Shown: positions 712 to 39,067 of the stretch, piece after piece | How positions within the stretch are numbered: position 1 is the stretch's first letter | Layout of the letters: each line of letters opens with the position of its first letter | NCBI GenBank assembly: GCA_963729715.1 | Contig: CAVSPA010000006.1 | Span: forward strand, 128,001 to 192,000 | Length of the DNA: 64,000 nucleotides | Source of the DNA: an uncultured delta proteobacterium | GTDB taxonomy: Bacteria; Desulfobacterota; Syntrophia; Syntrophales; UBA2185 | Reading direction: 5' to 3' | Program-made: the position numbers and the translations under genes | Notes under the pieces: generated by a model | The model's input: only the letters and a program-made list of their open reading frames with translations | Databases searched by the model: none | Told to the model about the DNA's origin: nothing

Positions 712-762
712 AAATATTGTTTACCTGTTTTTTAGTTTTCATTTATATGCCTGATTGACGAT

Positions 763-1020
763 ATGCTTATGCCCGAGTATGCAATATGGACATTGATTGT
801 CAGCTTAACCGGCCTTGCGCTTGGGTTGTTTCTTAAGTGTAGGGATCTTTCCTCTAGGTTGAAGAACTCTGAGAATGAGCAAAATAGTCTTCAGTCTGAA
901 CTTTATACTTTGAAAGAGGCTCAGAATAAGGAAATATCTGACATTAAGAAAGACCACAAAAAAGAGACGGATGAACTCAGAAACAAGATTCGCAAGCTTA
1001 GTCATATTGAGCCGCAGTAG
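763..1020 (+). CDS. Small protein, N-terminal TM helix plus coiled coil
   Basis: Hydrophobic residues ~7-24 followed by a charged heptad-like region. Confidence 0.55.
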   Translation: MLMPEYAIWTLIVSLTGLALGLFLKCRDLSSRLKNSENEQNSLQSELYTLKEAQNKEISDIKKDHKKETDELRNKIRKLSHIEPQ

Positions 1021-1089
1021 ATAGAGGCAAGTTCTTAAACAAACACCCCTCCGCAAAATTCCACCGATAGACAAAGATCGTCGATACAA

Positions 1090-2322
1090 ATGTTTAGAAT
1101 CGGTCCGACAGCAAGGGGAAGCTCCACAGGAAAGCGCTACATCGGGGGAAGTATAAAATTATACCAAGGGGAATGCGTCATAGAAAGCAAACCATATTCT
1201 AAGGGACTCGAAGGTGTAGTAGCTGACGAAACTCGCATTTGCAAAATCGATGGCATCAGTGGGAAACTATACTACCGGGGTTACTCCATCGAGGATCTTG
1301 CTGCCTATTCAAACTATGAGGAAGTCTGCTATCTGCTTCTCTATGAGCAACTTCCAACTATTGCTGAACTGAAGAACTTTTCGCAACGGATGCGGCAAAG
1401 CCGTCACCTCGTCCAGCCGGTTCTGGATATGATAAAATCTTTTCCCGCCTCCGCCCATCCCATGGAATTATTGCAATCATCTGTCTCCTACTTGAGCGGA
1501 TATGTGAAACATCGCATTGAACATTCTGCCACCTGTAACTGTCGAGACACGCTTTATCAGATTTCACAGCTTGCCAGCGTTGTTGCCATGTACGGTCGCT
1601 ATCGGGAAAAAAAGGAATATGTAACGCCACGAATGGACCTCTCGCATGGGGCCAATTTTCTGTATATGCTAAATGGAACCGAGCCGGATAGCCTCGAAGG
1701 CGAAATAATGGATAAGTGCCTGCTAATACACGCTGAACATGATTTTAACGCATCCACATTTGCGGCGCGGGTTGTCGCTTCAACCCTTTCAACCTGCTAC
1801 TGCAGCATATCAAGCGCAATAGGTGCGCTCTATGGATCGCTTCATGGAGGGGCAAACCAGCGAGTTATAGAAATGGTCGAGGAAATCGGAGATAAGAATA
1901 ATGTGGCCGTTTGGATGGACAGAGCTTTTGCCCAAAAGAGGAAAGTAATGGGGATGGGGCACCGTGAGTATAAAGCGAAAGATCCACGGGCAAACATCAT
2001 ACAAGAATTTCTTATACAACTTTCCGAAAAGAAGAAAGACTTTCGGTACTATGAGATTTTGCAGGAAGTTGAAAAGGTATTCCGCAGTAAAATGGAAACT
2101 GTGGGTAAACCCATTTATCCCAATGTTGACTTTTACTCCGGCACCGTCTACCGCCTTCTGGGTATTCCATCCATCCTCTTTACTCCGATTTTTGCCATGG
2201 GGAGAGTTGCCGGATGGCTTGCTCATATTCTGGAACAAAGGAGCGACAATCGCATCTATCGTCCGGAAAGCCTTTGGGCAGGTCCTGAACCCCGCAGCTA
2301 TACTCCCATTGAGAAACGATAA
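1090..2322 (+). CDS. gltA: Citrate (Si)-synthase family protein; true start probably ~25-30 codons downstream
   Basis: SKGLEGV, LYYRGY, HAEHDFNASTF, LHGGAN, MGMGHR and YPNVDFYSG motifs. Confidence 0.92.
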   Translation: MFRIGPTARGSSTGKRYIGGSIKLYQGECVIESKPYSKGLEGVVADETRICKIDGISGKLYYRGYSIEDLAAYSNYEEVCYLLLYEQLPTIAELKNFSQRMRQSRHLVQPVLDMIKSFPASAHPMELLQSSVSYLSGYVKHRIEHSATCNCRDTLYQISQLASVVAMYGRYREKKEYVTPRMDLSHGANFLYMLNGTEPDSLEGEIMDKCLLIHAEHDFNASTFAARVVASTLSTCYCSISSAIGALYGSLHGGANQRVIEMVEEIGDKNNVAVWMDRAFAQKRKVMGMGHREYKAKDPRANIIQEFLIQLSEKKKDFRYYEILQEVEKVFRSKMETVGKPIYPNVDFYSGTVYRLLGIPSILFTPIFAMGRVAGWLAHILEQRSDNRIYRPESLWAGPEPRSYTPIEKR

Positions 2323-2515
2323 AGTTCGATGGTAAAAAGTCAGTAAACAACGCATCTACCTGTTAGGATCATCAATCTTGATAAAGAGGTAATTTAAATT
2401 TTTTCTATCCCCTCTGCTGAAAAAGTTTAAGAGAATCTGATCGAGGCCCTAACCTTGCGACCGCCAGGATATTGTGATAATCTGCAAAAATAGGAAAGAA
2501 GAAGGACGGAAGACT

Positions 2516-3199
2516 ATGGATAAGGCGGCATTCCATAAACTCAGTTACGGTCTGTACGTCGTAAGTTCGAGGAAAGATGATCTATTCAATGGCCAGATCG
2601 CCAATACGCATTTTCAAGTAACATCAGAACCGCCGACTGTTGCAGTCGGTATTAATAAACAGAATCTCACCCATGAGTATATTCAGGCAAGTGGGAAATT
2701 TGCCGTATCCGTCTTATCGAAGTTGGTGCCTATGCAATTCATCGGTCTCTTAGGCTTTAAATGTGGGAGGGATATCAACAAATTTGAAAATTTAAATATC
2801 AGGCTTGGAAAAACTGGTGTTCCCGTTGTGTTGGATCACTCCATAGCCTACATTGAGGCCGAGGTGATAAATGAAATGAACTGCGGCAGCCATACGATAT
2901 TCGTAGGTCAGGTGCGGGATTGTGGCATCCTCAATAGTAATGATGAATCTATGACCTATGCCTATTATCACGAAGTGAAAGGCGGCAAGTCCCCGAAGAC
3001 GGCACCGACCTATCAGGCGCCTGACAACGTCGAAAATGGAGACAGATATCCATGCTCAGTATGTGGATACGTTTATGATCCGGAGAAAGGAGATCCCGAT
3101 TCCGGCGTCAAACCGGGAACAAAATTCGCAGATCTCCCCGGAGACTGGATGTGTCCTATCTGTGGAGCCGATAAATCAAAGTTTGAAAAAGGAGAATGA
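2516..3199 (+). CDS. Flavin reductase-rubredoxin fusion (high-molecular-weight rubredoxin)
   Basis: Flavin_Reduct domain (LSYGLYVV...GSHTIFVG...TYAYYH) plus [10 protein letters not shown]...CPICGA rubredoxin. Confidence 0.9.
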
Positions 3200-26847: not shown

Positions 26848-28506
26848 ATGAAGTGTCCTAAATGCCAGTTTGAAAATAGAGATGGGGCGAAATTCTGCAA
26901 AGATTGCGGTCACAAATTGGAGGCCCTATGTTCCCAGTGCGGAGCTATAAATCTGCCCGACAGTAAATTTTGCGATAGTTGCGGACGGAGATTAGATGAA
27001 ACTGGACAAAAAGAAAAGGCAATTCCCGCACCTGAGGGCGAGCGCAAGCACGTCACAGTATTGTTTTCCGATGTGTCCGGCTATACGACTATGTCTGCGA
27101 GACTTGATCCTGAAGAAGTGAAGGAGATCATGGGGCAGATCATAGGTGGCGTAAACAGGGTCATTAAGCAGTATGGGGGATTCATGGAGAAGTATGTCGG
27201 TGATGCCGTCATGGCTCTCTTCGGTGCTCCTTTTGCCCAGGAAGATGATCCGGTAAGGGCGATAAAAGCCGCCGGAGATATCCATGGCGTCGTTAAATCC
27301 CTGAGTCAGCGGTACGAAGAGAAGATCGGGAAACCGCTGGCAATGCATACGGGCATCTGTACCGGCTTAGTCGTAACAGGTAACGTCAATTTAGAAAAAG
27401 GGACCCACGGAGTATTGGGAGATACGATCAACGTGGCTTTCCGGCTCTCTGCCCTGGCAAAGCCAGGCGAAATCATTGTGGACACTGGCACTTATCGCCG
27501 AGCGGCGGGACATTTCAATTTTGATACTCTCGAGCCGGCCACTGTGAATGGCAAGACAGAACCCGTAAGGATTTTCAGGGTTATATCACCCGAGGAAAAA
27601 CCCACCAAGACTCACCGCCTGTCCGGCATGAGGGCGGAACTTATAGGGCGTAAGGTGGAGATGGCTCAATTACAAGGAAGCCATATACAATTTGAAACAG
27701 GGGGCCGTGTTCTCCATCGTGGGCGATGCCGGCACAGGGAAAAGCAGGCTCATCGAAGAGTTCACGGCTGCATTGGACATCAAGGAGATTCGGTGAAGGG
27801 GGGGGACATTGTTATCCCTACAGCCAGAACATCCCCTACTTTCCCCTCATCAATCTCCTGAGCCGGGCATGGCAGATTCGCGAGGGTGACTCGGCCGATA
27901 TGGTAAGACAAAAGGTCGAAGCCGGGGCGAAAAATCTGATCGGAGACAGGAAAGACCGTATACCCTATGTGGGAAGCCTTTATTCCCTCAACTACGCGGA
28001 GATCGAAAGCGTCAGCCCCCATTTTTGGAAGGCTCGTCTTCATGAGACGGTAAGGAAGATTTTTTCGGCGGCCCTTCCACGCATAGGTCCGACGGTCATC
28101 TGCGTTGAGGATCTGCATTGGGCAGATCCGTCCTTTGTAGAACTATTGCGTCACGTCCTTGCTGATTTCAGGTTTCCGGCGATCGTCCTGTGTACCTACA
28201 GACCTTCGTTTAGTCTCTTCACAGTCCATCAGGTGAACGGTCTGGGTAAGTTGTACCAGGAGATCAGACTCTATGATCTCTCAAAGGGCGGAGGAGAGTT
28301 TCCAAAAGGCCATAGAGGTAGCAAGAGAGATCGGGGCTAAGGGCGTGCTCGGTCAATGTTATCTCGACTTGGGGCAACTATACAAGGTCAAGAAGAAAAC
28401 CGATCAGGCGAGGAAATGCATTGCCGACGCCGTGGAGACTTTTAAAGAGTGCGAGGCGGATGTCTTCCTGCAACAGGCCAGAGAGTCTTTAGAAGCTTTG
28501 ATTTAA
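26848..28506 (+). pseudogene. Double-zinc-ribbon adenylate/guanylate cyclase-AAA-TPR protein, frameshifted and internally deleted
   Basis: CPKC...FCKDCG; ERKHVTVLFSD and GDAVMALFG; Walker A (GDAGTGKS) and EDLHWAD in other frames; jump to the terminal TPR near 28283. Confidence 0.85.
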
Positions 28507-30860: not shown

Positions 30861-31182
30861 GTAAAAAGGTAATAATAAACAAGCGATCCACGACCCACCC
30901 AATTTTTGAGCCGGCTCAATGCATTATAATAAAGTTTTGATCTCGACTTGCTAGTCAGTGAGTTTTAGACACAGCAATTAACAACATTTTACCCCGGAAG
31001 AAGGAGATAAAGATGGTGATGAGATGGTTACTGAAGGGTCTGTTTCTTTCTCTGCTCTTTGTTGACATATTTAGTGAGAAAATTAGCTTGACATAGAAGA
31101 AAAATCACTCTTATACTTTGCCAACAAAAAAAGGACTTCTTATCAATTATAATCTAACCCAAAAATAGTGAGCAGAATACCC

Positions 31183-31494
31183 ATGAAGCGGAGGAAACAT
31201 TCCCTTATCGTCTGTCTTTTGAGTGTGATGCTCCTGCTCGTCACGTTACAACCCCTTTTTGCTGCCGAAAGAATTATCAAAATGGTGGTTCCCGGATGCG
31301 AGTGACAGGACACGGCTAACAGGGTACGTGATGCCCTGAAGGAAATCCCGGGCGTGCTGGAGTATGATGCGGATCAATTTACTCACGAAGTAATGGTAAA
31401 ATTCGACGACACAAAAACCAGTATCAATAAGATTGTAGAGGGTCTGGCCAAGCAAGAATTCCCGATCGAAGGGCAGCCGAAGATCACCCAGTAA
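31183..31494 (+). CDS. Exported HMA-like (MerP/CopZ fold) selenoprotein, 103 aa, Sec at TGA 31303-31305
   Basis: Signal peptide, then AERIIKMVVPGCE-U-QDTANRVRDALKEIPGV...VMVKFDDTKTSINKIVEGL; hairpin 15 nt after the TGA. Confidence 0.82.
31320..31338 (+). promoter_or_regulatory. Candidate bacterial SECIS element
   Basis: CAGGGTA-CGTGA-TGCCCTG; 7-bp stem with one G-U pair; loop G at +23 from the TGA. Confidence 0.7.
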
Positions 31495-31692: not shown

Positions 31693-32118
31693 GTGAGAAA
31701 AACAGTATTTTTTTTGGTCATTGTGGTGCTTGCGGTGTGTTTTGCGGGAACGGCTGCTTTCGCCGCGACGGAGCTCACCCTCGAGAGCGTACAGAAGATA
31801 TCTGTTGACGGGTTGAAAGCGCAGCTTGGGAATCCCGATGTCATCGTTATCGATGTGCGGACGGCCCACGACTGGGAGGGCAGCAAGACCAAGATCAGGG
31901 GGGCTGTTCGCGAGGACACCCACAATATTGCCTCCTGGATCAACAAGTATCCAAAAGAGAAAACACTCGTTTTTTATTGCAAGTGACTGAATGAAGCGAC
32001 CAGTGCCAGTGTGGCACTGCAGTTCATGGCGAAAGGATACAAGAAAGTATACGCAGTGAAAGGTGGATGGAGGGCCTGGGAGGTAGCGAAGTACCCAGTC
32101 GAACCCAAGGGGGAATAA
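31693..32118 (+). CDS. Exported rhodanese-like selenoprotein, 141 aa, Sec at TGA 31984-31986
   Basis: IDVR...LVFYCK-U-LNEATSASVA...VYAVKGGWRAW...YPVE. The rhodanese domain is complete only with read-through. Confidence 0.9.
32001..32019 (+). promoter_or_regulatory. Candidate bacterial SECIS element
   Basis: CAGTGCCA-GTG-TGGCACTG; perfect 8-bp stem; loop G at +23 from the TGA. Confidence 0.78.
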
Positions 32119-32149
32119 ATAGCTGCTTCCGAGATGCCGACCTCTGGAC

Positions 32150-35617: not shown

Positions 35618-35980
35618 ATATGCGGTCTTTCAAGATCGTTTTTCTTATCGTCAGGGCATGTATAAAGCCTCTCATGACAAGCTGATGAGGCCGACTTTTA
35701 ACTCCAAGCATGATAGGCAAGCGCAGATACTATGTCAAGGAGAAAGCAGTACGTGTATTCAGGGTTTCCGGACCCTCCTTGACCTCTCCCGCTTTTGCCG
35801 CGATTGTTTTTCAGTCAGTAGAAAAAGCCACATCGATTATTCGGTTCGCATTTTTGCGATAGTTACAATTTTGTAATTTTTAAATTTAAATGAACAAAAT
35901 TGTTACAGATTATACCATCTAACATCAGAAACCTGATACAACAAATTAGTTAATACAGCTACTTACATAATATGACTCGG

Positions 35981-35997
35981 TTAGCATCAAAATTGCA
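35981..35997 (+). promoter_or_regulatory. Sigma54-like promoter variant upstream of amtB
   Basis: TTAGCATCAAAATTGCA versus consensus TTGGCAC-N5-TTGCA; one -24 G is replaced by A. Confidence 0.45.
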
Positions 35998-36043
35998 AAA
36001 CAATATCCTTGATATATCAAATAACCCGCGGGAGGTAAATTGT

Positions 36044-37276
36044 ATGAACTCAGGCGATACAGCATGGGTATTAGTATCGACAGCGCTGGTCTTTTTTATG
36101 GTTCCAGGATTGGCGCTTTTTTATGGGGGCATGACACGCAGGAAGAATGTCCTCTCCACCCTGATGCAATGCATCATCGTCGTGTGCCTGATAAGTGTCC
36201 AGTGGGTATTATTCGGTTACACGCTGGCGTTCGGACCCGATTCAGGCTTCGGAATACTTGGAAATCTCGACTTCATATGTCTGCGGAATGTGGGTTTCAA
36301 CCCTTTCAATGAATATTCAAAAACAATCCCCCATCTCGCGTTTATGATTTTTCAGTGCATGTTTGCCATTATTACACCCGCATTGGTCATTGGCGCATTT
36401 GCGGAGCGCATCAAATTTTCGTCTTTTTGCATTTTTTCCTTGCTGTGGGCTACTTTTGTCTACGACCCCATCGCACACTGGATTTGGGGAGCCGGTGGCT
36501 GGCTGAAAGAATTGGGAGGCCTTGATTTTGCCGGCGGTATGGTTGTTCATGGAAGCTCAGGTTTTGCCGCACTTGTCGTTTGTCTTCTGATTGGCCAGAG
36601 AGTCGGCTATCAAGAACAGCCTTTCCGGCCGCATAATCTTCCCTTTACCGTATTGGGGGCCGGCATGCTCTGGTTCGGGTGGTTCGGCTTCAACGCTGGG
36701 AGCGCTCTTGAAGCGAGCGGGTTGGCAGTTAATGCCTTTGTCAGCACCAATATTGCCGCTGCAGTTGCGGCTCTGACATGGGCAATCTGGGAGTGGCAGA
36801 AACACGGCGCACCGACCATGCTCGGTTTGGTTACCGGTATTATAGCCGGACTAGGGGCAATTACGCCGGCCTGTGGTTATGTAAGGCCTCTTGCGGCCAT
36901 ACCAATTGGAATTTTGGCAGGCGTTTTCTCTTTCCTCGCTGTAACAAAAATGAAAGCCAGACTGGGTTATGATGATTCGCTGGATGTTTTCGGCGTTCAT
37001 GGAATTTGCGGCGTATGGGGAACAATTGCAACAGGCCTCTTTGCGGAAAAAGCAATTAATGCCGCCGGAGAAAACGGCTTTCTTTTCGGCAACGCTAAAC
37101 TGCTACTCATACAGGGGCTTTATGTTGCTGTCACTATTTGTTACTCAGTCGCAGTAACCTGGATTCTGTATAAATTCGTTGATGCCTTTATGGGCATGAG
37201 GGTTGAGAAGAAGGATGAGATCATCGGCCTTGACCTGACCCAGCATCACGAATCCGCCTACACCGTTGTGGAATAA
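36044..37276 (+). CDS. amtB: Ammonium transporter
   Basis: GDTAW, PGLALFYGG, DFAGG..VH, WFGWFGFNAGS, DD..VFGVHG. Confidence 0.96.
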   Translation: MNSGDTAWVLVSTALVFFMVPGLALFYGGMTRRKNVLSTLMQCIIVVCLISVQWVLFGYTLAFGPDSGFGILGNLDFICLRNVGFNPFNEYSKTIPHLAFMIFQCMFAIITPALVIGAFAERIKFSSFCIFSLLWATFVYDPIAHWIWGAGGWLKELGGLDFAGGMVVHGSSGFAALVVCLLIGQRVGYQEQPFRPHNLPFTVLGAGMLWFGWFGFNAGSALEASGLAVNAFVSTNIAAAVAALTWAIWEWQKHGAPTMLGLVTGIIAGLGAITPACGYVRPLAAIPIGILAGVFSFLAVTKMKARLGYDDSLDVFGVHGICGVWGTIATGLFAEKAINAAGENGFLFGNAKLLLIQGLYVAVTICYSVAVTWILYKFVDAFMGMRVEKKDEIIGLDLTQHHESAYTVVE

Positions 37277-37291
37277 GGAGGGTAGTTAGCC

Positions 37292-37633
37292 ATGAAATAT
37301 ATAGTCGCGATAATACAGCCCCACAAACTGGACGAGGTGATGAAAAGCCTGGAGGATGTGGAGGTGAACTTGGTGACCGTATCGAATGTACTCGGACGCG
37401 GCAGGCAGAAGGGTTTGACGGAGATCTACCGGGGTGCGAAGGAGGTAGGGAGCCTGCTGAAGAAGATAAAGCTGGAGATAGCGTGCAACGAGGATTTTGT
37501 GGAGCCGACGGTACAGGCGATCATCAAGGGAGCACGGACGGGAGAGATCGGAGACGGGAAGATATTCGTGATTGACCTCTACGATGTTATCCGGATCCGC
37601 ACAGGCGAACGGGGCGGCAAGGCCATAGGATAA
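37292..37633 (+). CDS. glnK: P-II nitrogen regulator
   Basis: [28 protein letters not shown]; adjacent to amtB. Confidence 0.92.
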
Positions 37634-37651
37634 AGGAGAGGTGCGAGAGAT

Positions 37652-39067
37652 ATGAATCTTAAAGAGCTAATGAAGTATTCCAAGGACAAGCGTCTGGAGT
37701 TTATTGATCTGAAATTCACGGACATCCCAGGATTGTGGCAGCACATCACGATACCGATCCAGCAGTTGGACGAGGACCTGGTTATCCATGGTATCGGTTT
37801 CGATGGTTCGAGCATCCGGGGGTTCCAGCCGATCAACGAGAGTGACATGCTGATCAAGCCTGATCCTGAGACCGCATTCATCGATCCTTTCATGGCGGAT
37901 CCCACGCTGAGCATGATCTGCAACGTCAAGGATCCCCTGACGCAGATACCGTATTCGCGTGACCCGCGTAACGTAGGACAGAAGGCGGAGAGGTACCTAT
38001 CGGTCTGCGGGATAGCGGATCAGGTTTTTTTCGGTCCGGAGCCCGAGTTTTACGTCTTTGATGATGTACGTTTCGAACAGACTTACAACACGGGTTTTTA
38101 CCGTGTCGATTCGAAGGAGGGATTCTGGAATACGGCAAGGGACGAGGGGCCGAATCTCGGATACAAGCCGCGCTACAAAGAAGGCTACTTTCCTGTGCCT
38201 CCCACAGACAGCCTGCAGAATCTCCGGGCGAAAATGTGCAAGGTGATGACGGAAGTGGGGATTCCTGTGATTCTCCATCACCACGAGGTTGCCACGGCGG
38301 GCCAGTGCGAGATCGGTGTGCGTATCAATAACCTTGTGGACACGGGAGACATGTTGATGAAGTACAAGTATGTGGTAAAGAACGTCGCCCTGGCGCACGG
38401 GAAGACGGTGACGTTCATGCCGAAGCCGCTCTTCATGGATAACGGTTCGGGAATGCATGTGCACCAGAGCCTCTGGAAGAACGGCAGGAACCTATTTTAT
38501 GAGCCAGGCGGATACGGAGGAATCAGCAAGCTCTGCCGCAACTATATCGGGGGCCTGCTGCATCATGCTCCATCGCTTCTGGCCTTTACGTCACCCACGA
38601 CGAATTCATACAGGAGACTCGTTCCGGGGTATGAGGCTCCGATCAACCTGGTGTACTCGCAGCGGAACCGGAGCGCATGTGTGAGGATACCGATGTATTC
38701 ACCCTCCGAGAAGGCGAAGCGTATAGAGTTTCGTTGTCCCGACTGTTCCTGCAATCCGTACCTGGCGCTTGCGGCGATGCTCATGGCGGGTCTGGACGGC
38801 ATCGAGAACGAGATCGAGCCGCCGCCGCCCATCGATGAGGATATCTATGAGCTTTCGCATGAGGAGAAGAGCCATATCAAGGCGACGCCCGGCTCCCTTT
38901 CAGAGGTGCTGGATGCGCTGGAGAAGGAGCACTCCTATCTTCTTAAAGGTGATGTCTTTACGGAGGACCTGATCCAGACGTGGATCGAGTACAAACGAAA
39001 GAGGGAGGACGACCTGATCAGGCTTCGTCCCCATCCTTACGAGTTTGCGTTGTACTACGATATTTAA
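37652..39067 (+). CDS. glnA: Glutamine synthetase type I
   Basis: FDGSSI, HHHEVA, TFMPKP...[20 protein letters not shown]. Confidence 0.97.

Follow-up and report, generated by a model that had tools for sequence, protein, structure and literature searches.

A predicted exported HMA-fold selenoprotein with a remodelled Cys-x-Sec loop and a possible redox role beside other exported selenoproteins

The stretch of DNA analysed here (the window, 64,000 nucleotides) carries at 31183..31494 on the forward strand a gene for a predicted exported selenoprotein of 103 amino acids with an HMA/MerP fold, identified through its translation, its match to the HMA family and its homologs. The translation begins with ATG and a basic, hydrophobic N-terminus, runs through VVPGCE-TGA-QDTANRVRDALKEIPGV...VKFDDTKTSINKIV and ends at a TAA stop; the TGA falls at codon 41 (31303-31305), with an open stretch of exactly 62 codons behind it. 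The table 11 list of open reading frames holds no forward-strand frame of at least 60 amino acids at this place, and the gene is missing from the ORF track. Residues 1-27 (31183..31263) form a predicted Sec-type signal peptide with cleavage near LFA/AE, judging from the sequence, the hydropathy and the layout of the homologs, which is the same; the n-region is basic, the h-region is hydrophobic, and the Kyte-Doolittle profile peaks at 3.2. A putative sigma-70-like promoter, TTGACA-18-TATACT, lies upstream on the same strand at 31088..31117, where it was recognised by its consensus match (11/12); close homologs carry an identical -35 box.

The next gene, both here and in close relatives, encodes an exported rhodanese selenoprotein with a YCKU motif (31693..32119, forward strand; TGA at 31984-31986), which scores 169.3 bits against the known family NF041203 (cut-off 115), has an 8-bp hairpin at about 32001-32019 and is a candidate partner of the HMA protein. 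Beyond it, on the opposite strand, follow a small lipoprotein-like gene and genes for a DoxX/MauE protein and a cNMP-rhodanese protein. Just upstream of the promoter, about 1.4 kb of the related locus L062, including an intact gene for a YCTU rhodanese selenoprotein, is deleted in the window; the first ~17 codons of this second rhodanese gene remain at 31013..31065 (forward strand) and were recognised from the intact copies in L007 and L062. No mer genes (merT, merA or merR) were found in the neighbourhood. Farther out on the forward strand, and recognised from sequence, are an adenylate/guanylate cyclase-like gene that is apparently split into several overlapping ORFs (26848-28506) and an amtB-glnK-glnA-like nitrogen assimilation run (35972-39067).

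The mature part of the protein (31264..31491, forward strand) is predicted by AlphaFold2 and Foldseek to be a ferredoxin-like HMA domain of beta-alpha-beta-beta-alpha-beta topology. When the TGA is read through, the protein reaches 36.3 bits against Pfam HMA (PF00403, cut-off 24.8); a search of NCBIfam with the same read-through protein gave no family at its cut-off. The AlphaFold2 model, built from a 41-row alignment, has a pLDDT of 96.4, and its top match in Foldseek is MerP (1osd, TM 0.86).

Several observations bear on how the in-frame TGA is decoded. In the host genome, selA, selB and selD all score above cut-off and a tRNA-Sec(TCA) is present, while the tRNA-Trp is solely of the CCA type; the selD gene carries an in-frame TGA of its own, and the TGA is kept in all three paralogs of the HMA family in this genome. 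A metagenome scan that allowed any TGN codon at the Sec site gave 31 matches, every one with TGA and none with TGG; 30 of these are family members and one is a chance match, so that TGA is found in 30/30 close metagenomic homologs. Homologs with Trp, Arg or Gly at this site, and a TGA unique to this strain, would count against selenocysteine, as the initial annotation pointed out, and the protein database, where Trp stands at the Sec site in 12/12 homologs, appeared to be such a case; however, five of the 12 could be traced to their DNA, and all five have TGA. The Trp in the database homologs is thus most likely an artefact of gene callers, to judge from these traced codons. Database entries P0003-P0014, P0018, P0020, P0021, P0026, P0028 and others either have Trp at the TGA or are fragments that begin past it.

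A related-locus search on genome contigs gave two loci, while a genome search yielded far more, with matches to the HMA family in 212 of the 301 genomes that represent the class; a chance match (L061) and a frameshifted copy (L020) were dropped before all counts, and duplicates were merged. The dropped copy (1495-1800 of L020, in G281) is a CEU gene that still has a Sec-peroxiredoxin gene downstream of it. Beyond the class the family is rare: 301 genomes sampled from the phylum contributed eight more once seven canonical HMA matches were excluded. Among the matches listed for the class, 139 of 150 have one TGA (counted by eye), and the frame downstream of it is conserved across the class; the other 11 are stop-free, two being CxC, six CxxC and three without a Cys in the loop. 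Cys homologs, which the initial annotation had named as a check, place their Cys opposite the TGA and exist in both CxC (L018, L069, P0024) and CxxC (L073-L078, L136) forms. Members L070-L072 have no loop Cys (PAIxSL/IDT), and L070 lies near selB and fdhD. Two selA-negative genomes (G005 and G204) have the Cys form, but two others, G215 (88% complete) and G243 (69%), have the TGA form, which counts against the Sec reading although both genomes are incomplete, and selA-positive genomes account for six Cys forms; the correlation between selA and TGA is weak for these reasons.

A SECIS-like hairpin was identified by folding and conservation at 31320..31338 on the forward strand. Bacterial SECIS elements consist of a hairpin just 3' of the UGA with a G early in the loop, and the element here has a 7-bp stem (31320-31326/31332-31338) and a 5-nt loop, CGUGA, which begins 21 nt past the UGA and has G at its second position. 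Its folding energy is no better than chance when compared with shuffled sequences (z = -0.9 to +0.1), so that the case for the hairpin comes from conservation and covariation and not from single-sequence stability. In a fixed register, 47 of the 56 distinct Sec members form the whole 6-bp core stem, as opposed to 0/8 Cys members, and G at loop position 2 is present in 56/56 and 4/8, respectively; these counts leave out L020, L061, L097 and L098 (the last two have no anchor), and members that are kin are not independent. The mean number of stem pairs is 5.6 in the CxU register and 6.0 in the CxxU register, compared to ~4 expected from synonymous recoding, whereas in Cys members it is 3.25 against 2.9 expected. 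Compensatory changes are seen at stem position 4 (G-C/A-U) and position 6 (A-U/C-G).

Taken together, we consider it very likely that this is a real and well-supported selenoprotein gene whose product is an exported protein with the predicted MerP/HMA shape. SelB would read the hairpin and insert Sec41, and the protein would then be exported. Much of the initial annotation is in accordance with these data: the in-frame TGA followed by 62 open codons, the absence of the gene from the ORF track, the HMA fold and the hairpin are all borne out, the export signal is supported by the hydropathy of the N-terminus, and Sec decoding is backed by the machinery in the genome (selA, selB, selD and tRNA-Sec), by conservation of the TGA and the SECIS-like hairpin, and by the Cys homologs.

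The loop itself is different from what had been assumed. The initial annotation described it as a shortened CxU version of the HMA metal-binding loop, but HMMER aligns residues 30-94 with MerP 3-67 without gaps; the loop is as long as that of MerP and has been remodelled, not shortened, and the shortened-loop reading is rejected. In this register Cys39 (31297..31299, forward strand; placed by the MerP alignment and the homologs) takes the position of Met in GMxCxxC, Sec41 that of the first Cys of the CxxC, a placement to which translation, homolog DNA and the MerP alignment all contribute, and Thr44 that of the second Cys. The motif is thus GCxUxxT, and with GCEUQDT the protein lacks the two-thiol GMxCxxC metal site of PF00403. 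Cys39 is invariant in the 41-row alignment, the rows of which were chosen by the presence of Cys39.

Three Sec forms with loops of equal length are found in the family: CxU, as in the window gene; CxxU, with Sec one residue further on, which is the form of most other class members examined and of the paralog on contig C18 of the host genome; and VVU, without Cys. The last is a divergent PGVVUG subfamily (L102, L103, L106 and L107) from other classes of the phylum, which keeps Sec without a loop Cys and has a weaker hairpin when examined in the family register. The hairpin is anchored to the R-V/I-x-x-x-L helix, with a spacer of 21 nt in CxU genes and 18 nt in CxxU genes. In a quick tree (77 rows, 78 columns; rows picked with the family profile) the family stands apart from canonical GMxCxxC domains with an SH-aLRT of 98, the Cys forms are nested within Sec clades, and the CxxU forms group together with a support of 82. 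An order of events in which loss of the second Cys was followed by the change of Met to Cys and then by the Sec shift is compatible with the quick tree but not fixed by it.

How does this protein compare with known systems? Like MerP (TIGR02052; PDB 1afi, 1osd), it has a (predicted) signal peptide and a single HMA domain, with 65 residues aligned gaplessly; unlike MerP, its loop is GCEUQDT instead of GMTCAAC and no mer operon was found, and its score against the TIGR02052 HMM is 42.8 bits, below the cut-off of 92.55. With the UxxU metal-binding (seleno)protein NF041115 it shares the small HMA fold and a Sec at the first-Cys position, but it has one Sec and not two, an extra Cys at the Met site and the motif CxUxxT; the score here is 18.9 bits, far from the cut-off of 95. 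The MerT/CopZ fusion-like selenoprotein NF045683 and the UxxC HMA domains of P-type ATPases likewise tie Sec to HMA/MerT metal handling, whereas the window protein is single-domain and has neither a MerT nor an ATPase part. NF045683 gives weak matches in 14/41 family members (best E 2.4e-9) and no match to the window protein (cut-off 375), and no member above cut-off was found in 151 genomes. The CxU redox selenoproteins, such as the rhodanese NF041203 (given as CxU in Table 1 of PMC13188914) and eukaryotic SELENOF, also have a Cys two residues before the Sec, an arrangement that suits a resolving selenenylsulfide, but their folds are different and the resemblance is one of motif only.

The initial annotation implied too high a degree of novelty, as exported HMA selenoproteins have already been catalogued. 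NF041115 corresponds to the 'putative mercuric reductase' of selenoprotein catalogues and has a representative in the deep-Sep supplement (PMC12013277), whose file 1 includes two exported single-domain HMA selenoproteins under that name. One of these two entries has a PGITU loop without a second Cys; by eye its register matches that of P0100, a protein placed with the HMA family in the tree. The PGITU protein looks by eye like a relative of the family, so that the kind is already on record. The HMA/Mer-type selenoproteins given in PMC13188914 are NF041115 (UxxU), the MerT type (C/SxxU) and P-type ATPases (UxxC); in its Table 1 (119 entries), a scope that does not extend to Haft and Tolstoy 2025 or BSepDB, the CxU and shifted CxxU HMA forms are absent. 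We likewise found no description of the CxU HMA form in the passages searched of PMC9312934, PMC1976440, PMC13326102, PMC12013277, PMC13745706 and bioRxiv 2022.07.06.499078, and a literature search for MerP loop residues turned up nothing pertinent. What is new here is the true register of the loop, the shift of the Sec site while the SECIS stays in place, and the association with exported Sec-peroxiredoxins, rhodaneses and thioredoxin-like domains as partners.

This association becomes apparent in the neighbourhoods of the relatives. At the other CEU loci, the next gene usually encodes an exported Sec-peroxiredoxin with a TxxU motif. We found this enzyme at 20 loci in 16/301 class genomes, in families f1 and f9 only, and 16 of the 20 loci adjoin a member of the HMA family, in both gene orders and in three HMA subclades; since the loci are kin, this count inflates the number of independent events, which comes down to about three arrangements. 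For the remaining four, two lie at a contig edge, one has the HMA gene at 8 kb, and one has none within ~3 kb. The Sec-peroxiredoxin gives nothing above cut-off in NCBIfam. No copy examined has a Cys after the TxxU motif, so the enzyme would require a resolving partner from outside. Examples are the genes at 1989-2540 (forward strand) of L005 and 761-1312 (reverse strand) of L006 and those of L135-L140, which have the motif FFPAAFTPxU and a Cys-free mature part. As the Sec-peroxiredoxin occurs in 16 genomes and the HMA family in 212 of the 301, it is excluded that the family has one obligatory partner.

At six f9 loci (L025, L027, L029, L032, L034, L087) the CxU HMA domain is fused to a thioredoxin-like domain, and these fusion genes adjoin lipocalin and QueF genes. 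The thioredoxin-like domain has a Cys (WCKD) in four of the six and is Cys-less (WSxD) in two, and the Cys-less pair weighs against a redox relay. The other copies in the host genome lie in a run of cytochrome bd, disulfide reductase and Prx genes and near a KatG-like peroxidase gene, respectively, and further family members are found near genes for peroxidase, rubrerythrin or OsmC. The large CxxU clade is mostly situated among housekeeping genes, which weighs against a redox-only reading.

In our view there is about an even chance that the Cys-Glu-Sec loop serves as an extracytoplasmic selenol redox or S/Se relay for the neighbouring exported selenoenzymes, and not as a mercury chaperone. A redox role is favoured because the second Cys is absent, because Sec-rhodanese and Sec-peroxiredoxin genes are neighbours, because the domain occurs fused to a thioredoxin-like one, and because no MerT was found. 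In such a relay, the exposed selenolate of Sec41 would attack the partner's Sec in its oxidised or S/Se-loaded state; this partner would be the 1-Sec peroxiredoxin at paralogous loci and the rhodanese at the window locus. Cys39 would resolve the mixed bond to give a Cys39-Sec41 selenenylsulfide, and a membrane electron carrier, for which the DoxX/MauE protein encoded two genes on is a candidate, would re-reduce it; we infer all of these steps past Sec insertion. The Met equivalent to Cys39 is buried in HMA domains, and this weighs against a Cys39-Sec41 relay. The initial annotation had left the choice between a soft-metal chaperone and an S/Se carrier; the genomic context favours a redox or S/Se carrier over a MerP-type chaperone.

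More tentatively, we propose that the HMA fold was remade as an extracytoplasmic 'selenoredoxin': the second Cys would have been lost, Sec placed at the first Cys, a new Cys gained at the Met site, and the Sec then slid by one residue (CxU to CxxU) with the SECIS held fixed in the coding helix. Such a protein might be the missing resolving partner of the Cys-free exported peroxiredoxin and of the exported Sec-rhodaneses in anaerobic, syntroph-type bacteria.

The strongest competing view, which we regard as a serious but less than even possibility, is that the protein is a periplasmic chelator of soft metals or metalloids (Hg, Cu(I), Ag, As), which would bind them through Cys39 and Sec41 and act as a sink or chaperone in the manner of MerP or CueP. 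MerP is the closest solved structure and shares the fold, and Sec occupies the metal-binding first-Cys position; the second cysteine of the CxxC, however, is gone. Some loci fit a metal role: the Cys forms L069 and L076 adjoin genes for an ArsP permease and a DUF2703 protein, the CEU member L008 has CueP ~4.5 kb away, and the host genome has an HgcA above cut-off (G000:C5:493625-494614), making the organism a possible mercury methylator. Catalogued HMA selenoproteins are, moreover, described in PMC13188914 as implicated in metal resistance. Against this, no MerT Pfam match or mer/cop annotation was found among 117 neighbour ORFs scanned (of 173 picked at 33 loci), and in the host genome (completeness 100%, contamination 6.5%) MerT was not found and MerA-like matches stayed below cut-off. 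Two further points speak against a chelator: the promoter has an 18-nt spacer and inspection by eye showed no dyad, and the CxU clade most often has thiol/selenol redox enzymes as its neighbours.

It is unlikely, in our opinion, that the protein is a stand-alone antioxidant or Se store, with a Sec that would react with oxidants or small molecules directly, and that its neighbours merely reflect joint regulation of genes for selenium and oxygen stress. Family members are widespread in the class and have no fixed neighbours, the VVU relatives retain Sec without Cys39, and selenoprotein genes often cluster, all of which speak for a stand-alone protein; the recurrent adjacency to the Cys-free peroxiredoxin, seen with either gene order and across three subclades, and the existence of the thioredoxin-like fusion argue otherwise. 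Finally, that the TGA is a genuine stop in a pseudogene, or is read as Trp, is most improbable, since the Trp in 12/12 database proteins and the non-significant hairpin energy are set against five traced codons that are all TGA, 31 matches without a TGG, homologs in which Cys, not Trp, is the substitute, a downstream frame conserved class-wide and a tRNA set with tRNA-Sec(TCA) and a CCA-type tRNA-Trp alone, and the traced codons and tRNA set largely refute it.

Irrespective of function, the gene represents an unlisted and widespread selenoprotein form that gene callers cut short or mistranslate with Trp. With Sec at two positions of one loop and a SECIS that is held by codon choice, the family provides a clean example from nature of a drifting Sec site. 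Should the Cys-Glu-Sec loop indeed act as a selenol redox or S/Se relay, the HMA fold would have a job that does not involve metal, and strict anaerobes would own an all-selenium periplasmic relay for peroxide or sulfur.
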